Assembly: GCA_044226015.1 (NCBI GenBank)
Contig: JBGAHS010000006.1
Coordinates: 384,001 to 448,000, forward strand
Direction of reading: 5' to 3'
Length of the DNA stretch: 64,000 nt
Source: Candidatus Obscuribacteraceae bacterium
GTDB lineage: Bacteria > Cyanobacteriota > Vampirovibrionia > Obscuribacterales > Obscuribacteraceae
Below, one piece after another: positions 3,838 to 13,945 of the stretch. The notes under the pieces are model-generated. The model was not told where the DNA came from. It saw only the letters and a program-made list of their open reading frames with translations, and made no database searches. A program made the position numbers and the translations under genes. The stretch's first letter is position 1, and each line of letters opens with the position of its first letter.

Positions 3838-3909
3838 TCCCGAGTAGCGCAGCGGTAGCGCAGGTGACTGTTAATCACTTGGTCGCTGGTTCGAATCCAG
3901 CCTCGGGAG
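3838..3909 (+). tRNA. tRNA-Asn (GTT), CCA not encoded
   Basis: Cloverleaf: acceptor TCCCGAG/CTCGGGA, D arm GCGC..GCGC, anticodon arm GGTGA-CTGTTAA-TCACT, T arm GCTGG-TTCGAAT-CCAGC. Confidence 0.97.
3867..3909 (+). repeat. attL core (3' part of tRNA-Asn)
   Basis: actgttaatcacttggtcgctggttcgaatccagcctcgggag, identical to 13900-13942. Confidence 0.95.
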
Positions 3910-3934
3910 TTTTTTCTTTTTGAATTGTCTAGCA

Positions 3935-3968
3935 AGACTTTTCGCGGTTGCGAAAGGTCTATTTTATT
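3935..3968 (+). terminator. Intrinsic terminator after tRNA-Asn, supplied by the element
   Basis: agacttttcgc-ggtt-gcgaaaggtct hairpin followed by attttatt. Confidence 0.65.
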
Positions 3969-3997
3969 GCCAAAATAGGCAGCGAAAATTTATGCAA

Positions 3998-4015
3998 ATA
4001 CTCCAATGATACTCC
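3998..4015 (+). promoter_or_regulatory. Putative integrase arm-type sites (left end)
   Basis: atactcc twice at 11-bp spacing; atgatactcc recurs at 13749-13758 near attR. Confidence 0.55.
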
Positions 4016-4905
4016 GGGGAAACTTAAATATGAAAGTTGAACAAAGGGACCCCTGCATCAATTGCAATTGTTGCCATGGCTATCAAGTCGCCAGAGACGA
4101 GCAAGGAGAACCATTACATGTAGGCAGCCAGATAATTCCTAATTGGGAAATTGATCTCGTGCGAGAATGTTTTACTAGAGATGGACGCCCCCTTGTCATA
4201 AAGATCGCAAAGAGTAATAAGGACAGAGAGATCCTCCTTAAGAATTGGAATGAGATTTTTCCTGACACAGATTCAACATTAGGCGTCATAGATCAATACA
4301 CGCGAAAAGCGAACGAAGCGTATCCGTATATTTGCTTTGCATCCATCAAGGGGAGAGCTGTTGGAAAACTATTTTTAGAGAGAAACTCAAACAACTCCAT
4401 GCGACGAGAACTTCAGGCTGCAATCATCGACAATGTCCAAGTGGACATAAACCATGAAGGTAACGGAATTTGCACCGAGATGCTTGCATTCGTGGAAGAA
4501 CTAGCAAGAAAAAACAAAATTGCATGGTTAGAGATCGGTGCTCGAAGAGTTGAGGATAATGAGGACCAAGGGCATCTCAGAAGGGGTTTAGACTCACTTC
4601 GAATTTACATCAAACGTGGCTACACAAAACATCCAGTGATACCCACAAGATCGCTCCTTATTCATAACTTAATTTCGATCGACAAAAAAAGTCGCAGCGC
4701 AGCCTGGTTGAAGAATTCCCCTCAACAAAACCAGGACAATATAAGCTTCACTATCACTCATCCCCGGTATGACTCAAGATCTCTGGTTGTCTACAAGAAT
4801 TTGCTTGAGCAGGACGAGAACGTGATGGACCAGCAGACGGTTCTCGCTCTGTTTAGAGAACTCACTGCAGATGTCCCACAGATCGACGACACCACCACAA
4901 ATTGA
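4006..4905 (+). CDS. GNAT-family N-acetyltransferase (element cargo); start may be 4030
   Basis: Acetyl-CoA motif A VQVDINHEGNGICTEMLAFVEELARK, later IYIKRGY; Cys-rich N-terminus CINCNCCH. Confidence 0.7.
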   Translation: MILRGNLNMKVEQRDPCINCNCCHGYQVARDEQGEPLHVGSQIIPNWEIDLVRECFTRDGRPLVIKIAKSNKDREILLKNWNEIFPDTDSTLGVIDQYTRKANEAYPYICFASIKGRAVGKLFLERNSNNSMRRELQAAIIDNVQVDINHEGNGICTEMLAFVEELARKNKIAWLEIGARRVEDNEDQGHLRRGLDSLRIYIKRGYTKHPVIPTRSLLIHNLISIDKKSRSAAWLKNSPQQNQDNISFTITHPRYDSRSLVVYKNLLEQDENVMDQQTVLALFRELTADVPQIDDTTTN

Positions 4906-4980
4906 CACGCTGACACAGCGTTAGAAGAGCAACTAGAAGCGGGCACAACTTTAACGCAAGTTGATTGAATACAAGTTGAG

Positions 4981-5748
4981 TTGAATGTGCACGCACCCGA
5001 AATTCCTCAAAAAAAGCGATTAGTCGCCTACTACCGTGTCTCTTCAGAATCACAAGAAGAGAACAATAGTATCGACTTGCAGAAGCGCAAAATAAGTTGG
5101 GCTGCAGATAACTACGGTTTCGAGATCATCGCAAACATCGAAGCTGTCGAAAGCGCGACATGCCAAAGTGATGATCGTAAGCACTTCAAGGAAGCACTGG
5201 AGATAATCAGATCAGCCAATTGCGATGGCTTGATCGTCAATGATCTTGATCGTTTCTTTCGCAATACGGAAGAAGGCTTGAGGATTGCCAGGAAGGAGTT
5301 TCTTGAAAGTGGCAAGACGCTCATCACCTTGAATCAAAATATAGACATCAGCACTGATGACGGCTGGTTTATGTTTGGCGTAATGCTTCTATTTGCAGAG
5401 AAAGAAGCAAAAACAAATCGATACCGAATGCGCGAGGGGAAGAGGTCTAAATCGAGAGCGAATAAAGCAGCCTACCTTAATGGAGCCACGCCGTATGGCT
5501 ATAAATCAGCCGGACCAAGCGGTAAGCGTTATTTGCAAATCGATCCAAAAGAATATCCATGGCGCGAAAAAATATTCTCCTGGCGCAGCGAAGGACGTTC
5601 ATACAAATGGATCGCACAAGAACTAAACACAAACGGTGTGAAAACAAAACGCGGTCGACAATGGCGAGACACCACAGTCAGGATCATCCTGATTCGTCCG
5701 TTAGCCCTCCAGGAAGCTCTGCCTCAAATACCGCCTGAAATAGCATGA
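4981..5748 (+). CDS. Serine recombinase A (catalytic domain plus short recombinase DNA-binding domain)
   Basis: YYRVSS catalytic Ser, DLDRFFRN, GATPYGY, SYKWIAQELN..GVKTKRGRQW. Confidence 0.92.
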   Translation: MNVHAPEIPQKKRLVAYYRVSSESQEENNSIDLQKRKISWAADNYGFEIIANIEAVESATCQSDDRKHFKEALEIIRSANCDGLIVNDLDRFFRNTEEGLRIARKEFLESGKTLITLNQNIDISTDDGWFMFGVMLLFAEKEAKTNRYRMREGKRSKSRANKAAYLNGATPYGYKSAGPSGKRYLQIDPKEYPWREKIFSWRSEGRSYKWIAQELNTNGVKTKRGRQWRDTTVRIILIRPLALQEALPQIPPEIA

Positions 5749-12160: not shown

Positions 12161-12288
12161 AAGCTTTGCGGTTCCTGCGCGTAGAGATTATCAAGAAATG
12201 CGTAATGTAAAACGCCACTTGAGGAAGTATTGTTTTAGCACTTTTTTGCGTGTTTTATCAACAATAAGCGCCAGTAACAGGAGGGATT

Positions 12289-12498
12289 ATGGAAAGAAAT
12301 TCAAAGAAGCTTCTGACCGAAATTGAGGTGGAAATCACGTATGGAATCACGCGCCATTGGTTGCGAAGAAAACGAGTGGAAGGCGGCGGACCAGAATTCT
12401 TCAAGATCGGAAGGAATGTCCGTTACTCAGCCGAAAAAATCGAAGCTTTCATATCTGGAAGCCAGCAAAGCTCAACAAGCGCATTTTCTCAGCGCTAG
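12289..12498 (+). CDS. AlpA/excisionase-like HTH protein
   Basis: LLTEIEVEITYGITRHWLRRKRVEGGGPEFFKIGRNVRY; ggagg RBS; convergent with the integrase. Confidence 0.85.
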   Translation: MERNSKKLLTEIEVEITYGITRHWLRRKRVEGGGPEFFKIGRNVRYSAEKIEAFISGSQQSSTSAFSQR

Positions 12499-13799
12499 CA
12501 TTCTGATGTTTCAACTTTCGAAAGAATGAAATTAGTGATCCTTTCCATCGGTACTCTGAGTCGCTCGATGTCAGAGACTATATAACCAGCCGTGACATCA
12601 TTGCTAGTACTATGATTCAAAAGACGCTTAAGAGGATATCCCTGAATATCGAGAGCTTCAGCAACAGTAGCAAACGTCCGGCGAAGGTCATGGCAAGTAA
12701 ATTCAATACCAGTCTTTCTCGTAACCTCCATCATGGGTTTTCTTGGATCAACCAGATGACCTGATGCGCCATCGCCCGGAAAGACGAACGTTGATGAGCT
12801 TTCCTTCTTAATTTCAAGAAGGAAATTCGAAACATGAGGGGTAAGAGGTAGCGTATGGACAGAGCCATTCTTGGTGTCAGTTACTGTAAGCGTGGCTGAC
12901 TTAAAATCAATATCTTTCCATTGAAGCGCCGAAGCCTCTTCTTTGCGTAGCCCAGTAAACAAAAGCAACTTCAAATAATTTCTCACTATCATATTCTCAA
13001 GCGTCTCTACGGCATCATGCCATGGCTTCAGCTCATGAGCCTTCAGTACAGTCTGCCTTCGAGGAATTTTATTCCAAGCCTTGATTTGAGATATTCTGCT
13101 AACGGGGTTGATGCTGATTTGCAAATCCGAATCATCAAATTTATGTTGAGCGTAATTAAATAACGCACGCAAGATGCGCATGACTTGATTTGCTTGTGCC
13201 TTCCCATTCCAATCACTACTTCGTCTTTTAAGTCCTGTATTGCCAAGATCCTTGAAGCGTCGCTCAATCATATCTTTGGAAATCTCAGTTATTGGTCGGT
13301 CCATCCAATCAGACACGCAACGATTTAGAATCTTCAGATATCCACGTTTCGTCGATTCCTTGAGGCTTGAGCGATCTGCAAGGTAGTTTTCCAAAACGAA
13401 ACGGAGAGTCGCAGATCTCCGAGACTGAACTATTCTTTCCTGCCGCAACGATTCTTTAGCGACTGCATTTGGGTCAATTCCTTTTGCGAAATCCCCGAGA
13501 GTTCTTAATGCGAGTTCTCTCGCTTGATGGTGGGTGATGCTGCCCAACTTGCCCAGGCTGACCCGAATTACCTTACGACTCCCTTTGATACGTCCCTGTT
13601 GAAAAAACATCGCACCAGTAGGAGTGACACGTACCCCAAACCCTGACGGTTCACCTAAAAAGTGATAACCAGGCTGGGAGAGCAGCGCATCAATTGTCTT
13701 TTTTGTGATCTTGGGCATGACTGGAGTATCCATGAAACTTACACTCATATGATACTCCATTTTCGGATAAGTCTTGCCTTGTTTCACTAAAACATGCAC
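12495..13799 (-). CDS. int: P4-like tyrosine integrase with N-terminal arm-binding domain (true start probably 13718-13733)
   Basis: GFGVRVTPTG arm domain; catalytic FTGLRKEE, TKNG, HDLRRT, LLNH, TAGY; adjacent to att. Confidence 0.95.
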   Translation of the reverse strand: MHVLVKQGKTYPKMEYHMSVSFMDTPVMPKITKKTIDALLSQPGYHFLGEPSGFGVRVTPTGAMFFQQGRIKGSRKVIRVSLGKLGSITHHQARELALRTLGDFAKGIDPNAVAKESLRQERIVQSRRSATLRFVLENYLADRSSLKESTKRGYLKILNRCVSDWMDRPITEISKDMIERRFKDLGNTGLKRRSSDWNGKAQANQVMRILRALFNYAQHKFDDSDLQISINPVSRISQIKAWNKIPRRQTVLKAHELKPWHDAVETLENMIVRNYLKLLLFTGLRKEEASALQWKDIDFKSATLTVTDTKNGSVHTLPLTPHVSNFLLEIKKESSSTFVFPGDGASGHLVDPRKPMMEVTRKTGIEFTCHDLRRTFATVAEALDIQGYPLKRLLNHSTSNDVTAGYIVSDIERLRVPMERITNFILSKVETSEC

Positions 13800-13838
13800 A
13801 ATTCAATCCATCCGCATAAGCTTACCCTTGCAGGCTTT

Positions 13839-13878
13839 ACCGAATCTTGCCAAAACCGACCAGACTTCACCAAATCTT
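13839..13878 (+). repeat. Four 10-bp phased imperfect repeats next to attR
   Basis: accgaatctt-gccaaaaccg-accagacttc-accaaatctt. Confidence 0.5.
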
Positions 13879-13899
13879 AGAATCAACGTTGCCCATATA

Positions 13900-13945
13900 A
13901 CTGTTAATCACTTGGTCGCTGGTTCGAATCCAGCCTCGGGAGCCA
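13900..13945 (+). repeat. attR: displaced tRNA-Asn 3' fragment ending in CCA
   Basis: 43-bp identity with 3867-3909, then CCA; no tRNA 5' half. Confidence 0.95.

Follow-up and report, generated by a model that had tools for sequence, protein, structure and literature searches.

The DNA analysed here, referred to throughout as the window, is a stretch of 64,000 nt from a Candidatus Obscuribacteraceae bacterium, and all island coordinates are window positions. The host belongs to the Obscuribacterales, non-photosynthetic relatives of cyanobacteria. Integrated at a tRNA-Asn gene lies an island of about 10 kb, with the following features:

3837..3910, + strand: tRNA-Asn(gtt), the integration target (ARAGORN, Rfam)
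3867..3909, + strand: attL core, 43 bp (repeat comparison)
3935..3960, + strand: terminator-like hairpin that follows the tRNA and comes from island DNA (consensus scan; terminator number not above shuffles)
4006..4905, + strand: GNAT acetyltransferase, 299 aa, cargo (PF00583, 22.7 bits against a cut-off of 20.7)
4987..5748 (alternative start 4981), + strand: SR1, short serine recombinase, 253 aa (Pfam, motifs, predicted fold)
5745..5972, + strand: 75-aa orphan overlapping the SR1 and SR2 genes (ORF list; no family in Pfam, PHROGs or NCBIfam)
5969..6718, + strand: SR2, short serine recombinase, 249 aa, SR1 paralog
6715..7113, - strand: HTH plus helical hairpin protein, 130-132 aa, TerS-like, kept in sister islands (profile and structure searches)
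7094..7321, - strand: 75-aa orphan upstream of the HTH gene (ORF list; no family in Pfam or PHROGs)
7322..8104, no strand: non-coding block whose core is 65% GC (composition, ORF absence)
7608..7686, - strand: composite motif common to the G122 island, comprising a G-run plus GATCT (7677-7686) and a 20-mer (7608-7627)
8105..8656, + strand: alpA1, AlpA-like HTH fused to a C-terminal domain without known family, 183 aa (phrog_66, E 0.002; matches alpA3)
8852..9064, + strand: alpA2, AlpA/excisionase-like, 70 aa (PF12728, HTH_17, 42.9 bits; TIGR01764)
9054..9917, + strand: primase with Zn finger, DUF7146 and Toprim_3 (Pfam, PHROGs)
9910..11457, + strand: P-loop helicase, SF3-like by motif (motifs, best phage match)
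11462..12160, - strand: 232-aa hypothetical protein (Atlas look-alikes in unnamed viral and bacterial clusters)
12289..12498, + strand: alpA3, AlpA-like, 69 aa, convergent on the integrase (phrog_66, E 3e-5)
12495..13799, - strand: tyrosine integrase with arm-binding domain, intact (Pfam, PHROGs, motif residues)
13900..13942, + strand: attR core, 43 bp (repeat comparison)

Boundaries and core genes

A preliminary description of this DNA had reported att repeats matching perfectly over 43 bp, a tyrosine integrase judged intact, three AlpA/Xis-like genes, a primase, a helicase and two serine recombinases, together with a lack of capsid, tail and relaxase genes, and each of these points is borne out by the evidence given below. 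The 299-aa GNAT cargo gene, three orphans and the 780-bp non-coding block lie beyond its list.

The two att copies (3867-3909 and 13900-13942) are identical, are the only copies in the 8.19-Mb genome and differ at the bases flanking both ends; the left copy is the 3' portion of tRNA-Asn(gtt), and the predicted circle is 10,033 bp. The tRNA alone passes the cut-off in an Rfam search, the promoter scan of the island gave a count below chance, and no long inverted repeats lie inside it. Downstream of tRNA-Asn in 13 relatives, none carries the GH18 gene of the window, and hence no true attB was recovered; the 88 bp past attR resemble the post-tRNA sequence in G004, a genome that itself carries a separate att copy.

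The integrase carries Arm-DNA-bind_3 (PF13356, 39.3 bits) and Phage_integrase (PF00589, 57.4 bits), both above cut-off, and retains R285, K310, H370, R373, H396 and Y406, to which catalytic roles are assigned from established tyrosine-recombinase motifs. Among the three AlpA-like genes alpA2 alone passes a curated cut-off, while alpA1 and alpA3 have weak phrog_66 matches and each matches the other. The primase gene combines DUF7146 and Toprim_3 matches, and its NCBIfam match to TraI is confined to the Toprim-like end of that protein (residues 1659-1869). The helicase has no Pfam family above cut-off; its Walker A and SF3-like B and C motifs were identified by eye, and its best phage match (E 1e-23) carries a helicase/primase annotation.

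Capsid, portal, tail and relaxase families are absent from the 14 island ORFs searched with PHROGs and Pfam and from the 13 searched with NCBIfam. Neither a relaxase nor a T4SS, the hallmark of an IME or ICE, was found among the island ORFs, a result with which an oriT-only element remains compatible. PADLOC detected no credible defence system in the island and no match for the GNAT gene. The 232-aa protein has Atlas scores of 0.95-0.96 with a recognition score below 2300, and is a lead only.

Probable recent movement of the island

Run X2 covers positions 3880-13929 in four overlapping unitigs at a depth of 7-13, with 0 differing letters. The flank at 1000-3405 (depth 11.5) shows 43 differences in 2,406 bases (98% identical); 14041-15174 has no coverage, and a joint spans that interval. 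The unitigs break at the 43-bp att repeat, so that linkage of island and flank in X2 is not provable and no attP or attB joint is visible in the assembled contigs. An identical island copy beside a diverged flank suggests that the island moved recently, and recent transfer is, from these sequences, likely.

The TerS-like protein and the GC-rich block

The preliminary description had also called a TerS-like HTH protein. An HTH gene is indeed conserved in sister islands, and its identity as TerS is only suggestive, with 17.2 bits against PF10668 (cut-off 22) and no curated TerS cut-off reached in Pfam or NCBIfam. Within the HTH family phrog_2606 TerS is matched by 42 of 79 members; a generic DNA-binding PHROG is matched by more (53/79), and the matches cluster on the HTH part, both of which argue against TerS. 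The G101 member nevertheless passes Terminase_5, the family profile matches the gene immediately upstream of TerL in G387, and Atlas neighbours of the protein include Phage_terminase clusters. One of the 13 distant profile matches adjoins TerL, and most lie beside an apparent transposase (by eye). Foldseek with the HTH model returned no match at E<1e-3 in PDB or BFVD, and VIA fold matches were generic helical hairpins (Z 8.5 or less). Across 33 primase places in related genomes, three have a clear P27-type TerS (for example Terminase_4, 87.6 bits) and nine the HTH family, with none having both, which speaks for a common packaging slot. Three members of the family in the order (G105, G118 and G121) have no island genes nearby, which counts against it. 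Scans of viral contigs with the HTH alignment or with P27 TerS gave no usable locus.

The non-coding block at 7322..8104 could be a packaging site, an origin or a control region for divergent transcription. The counterpart of its composite motif sits upstream of the HTH gene in the G122 island (19/20 identical), the exact 17-mer occurs in two of 107 genomes, and the full motif was found in these two islands only among 209 loci. In G027 and G126, inspection by eye places a G-run with ATCT after it 100-150 bp upstream of the P27 terS gene. Neither the prophage of the host nor the remainder of its genome contains the motif, which is also missing upstream of terS in two annotated phages; the 17-mer search yielded one unrelated viral match and two coding matches with one mismatch.

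The short serine recombinases

SR1 and SR2 both contain a Resolvase domain followed by positions 2-52 only of the 102-position Recombinase model, that is, a catalytic domain plus a three-helix half recombinase domain (half-RD) without a zinc ribbon. The two proteins are 60% identical, retain the RVSS nucleophile and DRFFR motifs, have near-identical recognition helices and are by motif catalytically intact. Their codon-position identities (66/78/33% over 243 codons) indicate that both are under purifying selection. Compared with a large serine integrase they lack the full recombinase domain and the zinc-ribbon/coiled-coil, the protein ending after the third helix, and top fold matches are the N-terminal halves of large integrases. 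Compared with a Tn3-type resolvase or invertase, there is no match to the C-terminal HTH_7 (PF02796). The PDB search gave no structure of a similar size to these proteins of ~250 aa.

Arrays of two to five short SR genes, some catalytically dead, occur in four other islands and apparently arose by repeated duplication. No res-like site common to the flanks was found upstream or downstream of 17 SR genes. Carriage of the genes as cassettes with common flanking sites was rejected, there being no shared DNA around the 17 genes. The same class occurs in single copy in prophages, so the pair may have been passively acquired, and on plasmids of 6.9 kb and 5.4 kb no recombinase other than a similar short protein is annotated. 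Metagenome and genome scans with a close SR alignment recovered G007 and, for the most part, gut-bacterial integrases of 470-810 aa, and a viral-contig scan with SR1 as query gave no usable locus. The Arthrobacter AZ 'serine integrases', considered as short SR relatives, are full-length (472 aa) and were rejected.

A second small recombinase is present at 13 of the 33 primase places, within the fetched window around each (five short RD-type serine, four Tn3-type serine and four FimB-like tyrosine), and absent at 20; the short RD type was found at none of 20 newly fetched primase places. As a Tn3-type resolvase or FimB-like recombinase fills the same slot in sister islands, SR1 and SR2 are likely to be resolvases rather than integrases.

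An island class in the Obscuribacterales

Relatives of the primase occur in 31 of 107 genomes of the order, at 37 places. The island falls into a class frequent in the Obscuribacterales, whose members measure 10-20 kb and have an int-AlpA-primase-helicase layout resembling PICIs, PICMIs and tycheposons. Sisters bounded by att sites include three in G025 (C31, 13.3 kb; C22, 13.8 kb; C16, 10.8 kb) and one each in G115 (10.3 kb), G101 (20.4 kb) and G107 (19.5 kb), and no capsid, portal or tail match was obtained among 74 ORFs of sister islands. A DUF3987 protein found in many sisters is absent from the window island. A primase scan of viral contigs matched the Zn finger only.

Proposed lifestyle and alternatives

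We read the island as a PICI/PICMI-type phage satellite in which SR1 and SR2 serve as resolvase and not as integrases, with a probability of about 0.5; a satellite lifestyle in itself seems slightly better than an even bet. The preliminary description had likewise proposed a satellite, and the island is complete, satellite-like and apparently recently mobile, while its further argument from two recombinase chemistries to an undescribed family is weak. Helper dependence is presumed, and no helper phage was identified. In this scheme the tyrosine integrase, probably with an AlpA/Xis partner, would cut out a circle of 10,033 bp and insert it again at tRNA-Asn, and the primase and helicase, whose genes are present, would replicate the circle. 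The TerS-like protein would probably bind a site in the upstream GC-rich block and divert the terminase of a helper phage. As the island has no capsid-size gene, capsids of normal size would then take up its DNA in concatemeric form; terminase diversion and packaging together are the weakest step. SR1 and SR2, probably jointly, would resolve multimers to monomer circles, a role suggested by gene-slot substitution and plasmid context, and the GNAT gene would be cargo. A gene order that departs from the PICI norm counts against this explanation: the replication genes point toward int, and the HTH gene lies on the opposite strand.

The absence of a fold match and the sub-threshold TerS calls would suit an integrative cargo shuttle (a cargo-tycheposon or 'hitcher') that replicates itself and hijacks no packaging machinery, an unlikely but serious alternative. 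In it the HTH protein would act as a regulator and the SRs would keep their resolvase role, and the element would spread through generalised or lateral transduction, in vesicles or by mobilisation from an oriT only. The variable, defence-like cargo of sister islands (PIN, AlbA_2 and Mrr-type domains), the resemblance of the primase to the TraI C-terminus, and the transduction by a jumbo phage of int plus alpA islands that have no packaging genes also fit such a shuttle, and 419 of 501 tycheposons are reported without packaging genes (bioRxiv 10.1101/2020.12.28.424599). It accounts less well for P27 TerS in the same island class, never together with the HTH gene, for an HTH profile that reaches a gene upstream of TerL, and for cargo consisting of a single GNAT gene.

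It is improbable that the SR array is instead an interference or switch module that poisons or competes with a short SR of a helper prophage, or inverts a segment. The closest outgroup of the SR pair is a prophage SR (G019, support 99/95), short SRs are common in viral contigs (18/20 loci), dead paralogs and stand-alone half-RD proteins retain the DNA-binding part, and recognition helices diverge among paralogs in G025, G089 and G122, as such a module would have it; yet SR1 and SR2 both remain catalytically intact and differ little in their recognition helices, the island has no long inverted repeats, and in other islands the slot is filled by FimB-like or Tn3-type recombinases. The perfect att sites, intact ORFs and purifying selection on both SRs, together with the identical copy in a diverged background in X2 and the recurrence of att-bounded sisters of 10-20 kb that lack virion genes, make it very improbable that the island is a deleted prophage or ICE remnant with the SR pair as accumulated debris. 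That disfavoured reading draws on the same SR class in full prophages in tRNA-Asn and tRNA-Pro and on SR copies in G007 and G096 that are frameshifted or truncated; the fetched prophages, however, lack counterparts of the island's helicase, HTH protein and full primase.

Significance of the satellite reading

Under the satellite reading, PICI/PICMI/tycheposon-like islands extend to the Vampirovibrionia, a class for which no mention was found among the top search results of the satellite literature. How a concatemer-packaged satellite returns to a single copy was left open in the PICMI paper (PMC10803314), and SR1/SR2 with a 10-kb circle make the resolvase answer directly testable. More speculatively, and doubtful at present, these islands could form an undescribed Obscuribacterales satellite subfamily in which two to five short SRs, active and dead or DNA-binding-only, make a heteromeric resolvase that turns TerS-packaged concatemers into single integrable circles. 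Were this true, the module would be a new serine-recombination architecture and would explain single copies of concatemer-packaged satellites; if SR1 and SR2 are ordinary redundant resolvases, the significance is modest. Serine recombinases of ~250 aa, a widespread group that seems to be uncharacterised so far, occur at viral loci and on small plasmids, and the island also offers a compact system in which to test them.

Comparison with known systems

PICIs provide a close parallel, sharing the integrase, AlpA, primase-replicase and a putative TerS-like gene, the lack of tail and holin genes, and a size (median 9.5 kb) near that of the island (PMC10085698). Judged by Pfam and PHROG families, the integrase, AlpA regulator and primase-replicase used to define PICIs are present, and a capsid morphogenesis gene has no match in Pfam, PHROGs or NCBIfam. 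The island thus differs in this gene, in its sub-threshold TerS, its SR pair and its replication genes directed toward int, although type B PICIs may lack one core gene (PMC10085698). Proteobacteria and Firmicutes hold >99.9% of reported PICIs, and the host falls outside both (PMC10085698). The cf-PICI hallmarks (own capsid, portal, TerL and head-tail genes) are absent from the island ORFs, the P4-like core of psu, delta, sid, epsilon and alpha (listed in PMC10085698) has no Pfam or PHROG match, and the large serine integrase of PLEs is absent, the SRs being 249-253 aa and a tyrosine integrase sitting at att.

PICMIs share a core of int, AlpA (PF12728) and primase without capsid remodelling, and are packaged as concatemers without capsid genes (PMC10803314). 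They integrate next to fis, whereas the island lies at tRNA-Asn, is larger and has a TerS-like gene and SRs in addition; the PICMI model uses DUF3987/DUF5906, neither of which the island helicase has, while sisters have DUF3987 (PMC10803314).

Tycheposons resemble the island in their tRNA-targeted tyrosine integrase, xis, primase/helicase and optional terS, their size of 10-20 kb, their small serine recombinase and their accretion of islands beside a tRNA (bioRxiv 10.1101/2020.12.28.424599). The island correspondingly has a tRNA target and an integrase, xis and replication module without conjugation or virion genes. Tycheposons are defined by a monophyletic integrase clade, whereas the island is likened to them by gene content only, and PICI-like tycheposons are reported without cargo, whereas the island carries a GNAT gene (bioRxiv 10.1101/2020.12.28.424599). 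Their gene list already places a small serine recombinase beside the tyrosine integrase (bioRxiv 10.1101/2020.12.28.424599), and six VEIME subgroups (48 elements) have both enzymes (PMC9618062), so that the pairing is published and not new, which leaves the earlier inference of an undescribed family weak. VEIMEs are marine satellites found in virions (PMC9618062), while packaging of the island into virions is a prediction. The available part of the tycheposon preprint makes no mention of tandem or dead small-serine-recombinase arrays (bioRxiv 10.1101/2020.12.28.424599). A literature search, with most subscription papers and bioRxiv supplements outside its scope, found nothing relevant on tandem, dead or resolvase-type SRs in satellites, and the trait not found in print is that of ~250-aa SR paralogs with a half recombinase domain in tandem arrays.

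The less usual trait is thus the tandem array of short SR paralogs. Co-oriented paralogous serine recombinases within one mobile element are familiar from CcrA and CcrB of SCCmec, and SR1 and SR2 give NCBIfam near-matches to these families, far below cut-off. Serine-integrase triplets of ICEs similarly combine co-oriented paralogs in one element (PMC7563491). The SCCmec Ccr and ICE-triplet enzymes are, however, integrases of 440-560 aa that carry out integration, while the SRs are ~250 aa and zinc-ribbon-free, and the att sites of the island belong to its tyrosine integrase, unlike SCCmec and the ICE triplets, which are integrated by serine recombinases.

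Boundaries and gene content of the island

The island lies between two identical 43-bp att repeats, of which the genome holds no further copy. The features that fix its limits, together with the gene for its TerS-like candidate, are as follows.

3867-3909: attL, the 3' part of tRNA-Asn
6715-7113 (-): HTH gene
13900-13942: attR

From the left, a GNAT gene, a short serine recombinase (SR1), a 75-aa orphan and a second short serine recombinase (SR2) are followed by the minus-strand HTH gene and 75-aa orphan. The right half opens with 780 bp of non-coding sequence; a pair of AlpA-like genes comes next, then the primase and helicase genes, an orphan of 232 aa, the third AlpA-like gene and, last before attR and read inward from it, the integrase. 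The structure given in the preliminary description (43-bp att, integrase, three AlpA-like genes, primase, helicase, two serine recombinases) is thus present, and its statement that capsid, tail and relaxase genes are absent holds, searches of the island ORFs with PHROGs, Pfam and NCBIfam having detected no virion or conjugation gene. The GC content of 45.3% differs mildly from the genome's 47.4% (8th percentile among 10-kb windows). The stretches 4903-4925 and 7772-7813 contain a repeated TGACAC and a CTAACA-NNN-TGTTAG palindrome, whose looser copy lies upstream of SR1; these may be an operator or a serine recombinase site.

A family of small integrative replicons

Relatives of the island primase (E<1e-20) occupy 37 places in 31 of the 107 Obscuribacterales genomes compared; 33 were examined, 20 of them fetched without regard to serine recombinases, and several end at contig ends. 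A search for the same gene order in related genomes had been proposed, and at most of the 33 places the primase is indeed accompanied by AlpA, a tyrosine integrase and a helicase, the type of which varies (SF3-like, DUF3987 or VirE-like, by eye). Six sister islands of 10-20 kb are bounded by att repeats (44-97 bp) and sit in tRNA-Pro, -Arg, -Leu or -Lys. A PHROG scan of 74 of their ORFs, taken from outside the integrases, primases, helicases and serine recombinases, matched TerS and HNH and no capsid, portal or tail. Because these att-bounded sisters lack virion genes, the backbone is, on gene content, a standard small integrative replicon and not a decayed prophage. Elsewhere in Obscuribacterales islands (L126, L127, L221, L228) 2-4 tyrosine recombinases (~300-380 aa) stand in tandem and look RIT-like by eye.

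Short serine recombinases and their arrays

SR1 and SR2 each join a resolvase catalytic domain, its motifs kept in both, to a three-helix domain equivalent to the first half of the recombinase domain (RD) seen in large integrases; the zinc ribbon is absent. Their codon positions 1, 2 and 3 are 66%, 78% and 33% identical, and since third positions are near saturation while first and second are conserved, both have been under selection for a long time. ORFs of this class (212-290 aa) occur at 18 of 20 viral loci, none of the 20 with a co-oriented intact pair, in Obscuribacterales prophages, and on two small plasmids as the only annotated recombinase. Strong matches were found in 10 of the 107 order genomes and arrays in five islands; arrays are a minority trait, seen at 4 of 33 primase places and absent from the 20 that were fetched irrespective of these genes.

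Serine recombinase arrays in five islands
Window: 2
G025:C31: 2
G089: 2; contig stretch without primase
G122: 3 intact, 1 dead
G101: 2 intact, 2 dead, 1 fragment

Dead copies lack the nucleophile and/or DR motif, and both in G101 still score on the Recombinase model. Two stand-alone proteins of 89-111 aa (L218:16465-16797 and L227:819-1085) consist of the half-recombinase DNA-binding domain only, one directly after a Tn3-type resolvase. In a 44-row tree, which does not settle the placement of the G122 and G101 copies, the window pair clusters with the copy of the same-genus genome G007 (100/100), adjoining a prophage recombinase. The G089 pair forms its own clade (99/99) and the G025 pair belongs to a third clade, so that duplication probably took place at least three times independently. 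P0103 and P0105 (76% identical, with longest contigs of equal length) may be another, putatively linked, pair.

The HTH protein as a candidate small terminase

The HTH protein has 98 relatives, mostly of 120-165 aa, in a 1.84-billion library, and its family is present in 11 of 107 order genomes. Its predicted model is confident (pLDDT 92) and combines an HTH with a long helix and a helical hairpin, the outline seen in many small terminases. A TerS PHROG is matched by 42 of 79 family members, one passes Terminase_5, and a gene picked out by the profile sits just upstream of a TerL; across the 33 primase places, P27-type TerS (three) and the HTH family (nine) never occur together. On the other side, a generic DNA-binding PHROG is matched more often (53/79), the window protein scores below all TerS cut-offs, fold searches with its model gave no significant match, 12 of 13 distant profile matches lie away from TerL, and island neighbours are missing around three order-level members. 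We put the probability that it works as TerS at about 55-60%. At most loci from a different bacterial family within the class (L147-L159), its relatives lie downstream of a Mu/Tn552-type transposase look-alike.

Upstream of the HTH gene is a G-run/GATCT plus 20-mer motif that recurs only in the G122 island, whose HTH protein is the closest relative. In G027 and G126, not clearly in G094, P27 terS likewise has a G-run plus ATCT ahead of it, which was not found upstream of terS in two annotated phages; the motif is a candidate for a packaging site or an operator. Sister islands L085 (G027:C11), L213 (G094) and L214 (G126) carry a clear TerS of the P27 type, present in duplicate in G027 and G126 and accompanied by HNH in G027, and are candidate cos-type satellites. 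A ~41-kb podovirus-like prophage in tRNA-Pro (G000:C11 1155576-1197000; L028-L030), with TerL, head, tail, a short serine recombinase of its own and a tyrosine integrase, is a candidate helper phage, though without the island's motif.

Integration site and mobility

The tRNA-Asn is a hotspot: G019 carries a 42.5-kb prophage there, G004 has a second att copy, and ybjN, a conserved neighbour that in G003 is about 200 bp away from the tRNA, is 49 kb away in the host. The 88 bp after attR (13943-14030) show 78% similarity to what directly follows tRNA-Asn in G004, have a motif in common with G005 and possibly represent an arm left by an older, degraded island. Of the DNA at this site, the present island is probably the latest to arrive, placed before older acquired DNA; the tycheposon account likewise models new arrivals ahead of older acquired DNA (bioRxiv 10.1101/2020.12.28.424599).

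Between island and ybjN, ~39 kb (14092-52700) holds accessory-looking genes (GH18, LRR/TPR, HEAT, glycosyltransferases, sulfatase, kinase) and two frameshifted insertion sequence copies, IS110-like by eye (15264-16450, 19223-20400), with many indels against copies in the sequencing runs. Upstream of the tRNA (3401-3541) a 40-bp tandem/inverted repeat occurs three to four times; related copies are numerous in G005 and G006 (REP-like), and run X2 skips 127 bp of this stretch. An array of 18 tRNA genes lies at G000:C10 356333-358584.

Run X1 shows no differences from island or flanks and may be the source of the sequence. In run X2, which comes from a different study, four overlapping pieces cover the island completely with 0 differences and at a depth similar to that of its flank; 43 of 2,406 flank bases differ, and the GH18 gene to the right of attR has been replaced. 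Because an identical 10 kb sits in a ~2% diverged background, this points to recent transfer, within the limit that unitigs cannot show linkage across the att repeat. A contig in X1 and X3 matches from 13771 on, has unlike sequence before that point, and is perhaps another element with the same att arm.

A proposed role for the recombinases

The tyrosine integrase would own the att sites, and the serine recombinases would therefore do something else. A second small recombinase occurs at 13 of the 33 primase places, island limits being defined for some only, and the types, three in number and unrelated, are short RD-type serine (5), Tn3-type serine (4) and FimB-like tyrosine (4). Since one slot is filled interchangeably in replicating circles, and given the plasmid context, multimer resolution is the best fit among roles. 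The island, having no capsid-size gene, would be packaged as a concatemer, as reported for PICMIs (PMC10803314) and VEIMEs (PMC9618062), and resolution would then yield monomer circles for integration. A res site was looked for around the serine recombinase genes and not found.

A cargo shuttle that moves without packaging is a tentative alternative, compatible with the HTH protein's low TerS scores and less so with the TerS matches in its family. That the array serves interference or inversion, to which dead paralogs in sister arrays might be referred, is doubtful given the interchangeable slot. Least probable is a remnant, the absence of virion genes being shared with att-bounded sisters. 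Concatemer packaging followed by resolution remains the preferred reading.

Comparison with known satellites

Two recombinase chemistries had been taken as a possible mark of an undescribed family; a tyrosine integrase with a serine recombinase in one satellite is, however, already published in the accounts of tycheposons (bioRxiv 10.1101/2020.12.28.424599) and VEIMEs (PMC9618062). In the literature consulted we found neither tandem or dead short paralogs in such islands nor such islands in this bacterial class (Vampirovibrionia) described, a point on which the tycheposon gene profiles may bear. Readings as cf-PICI, P4 or PLE were excluded. Known here from its genes, the island would work in the manner of a type B PICI or of a PICMI/PICI-like tycheposon. 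It is not filed as a PICI, as the capsid gene is missing and TerS is only putative, nor as a PICMI, from which its integration site and primase type differ; tycheposons are defined by integrase clade, and the island is likened to them by layout and not filed as a member.
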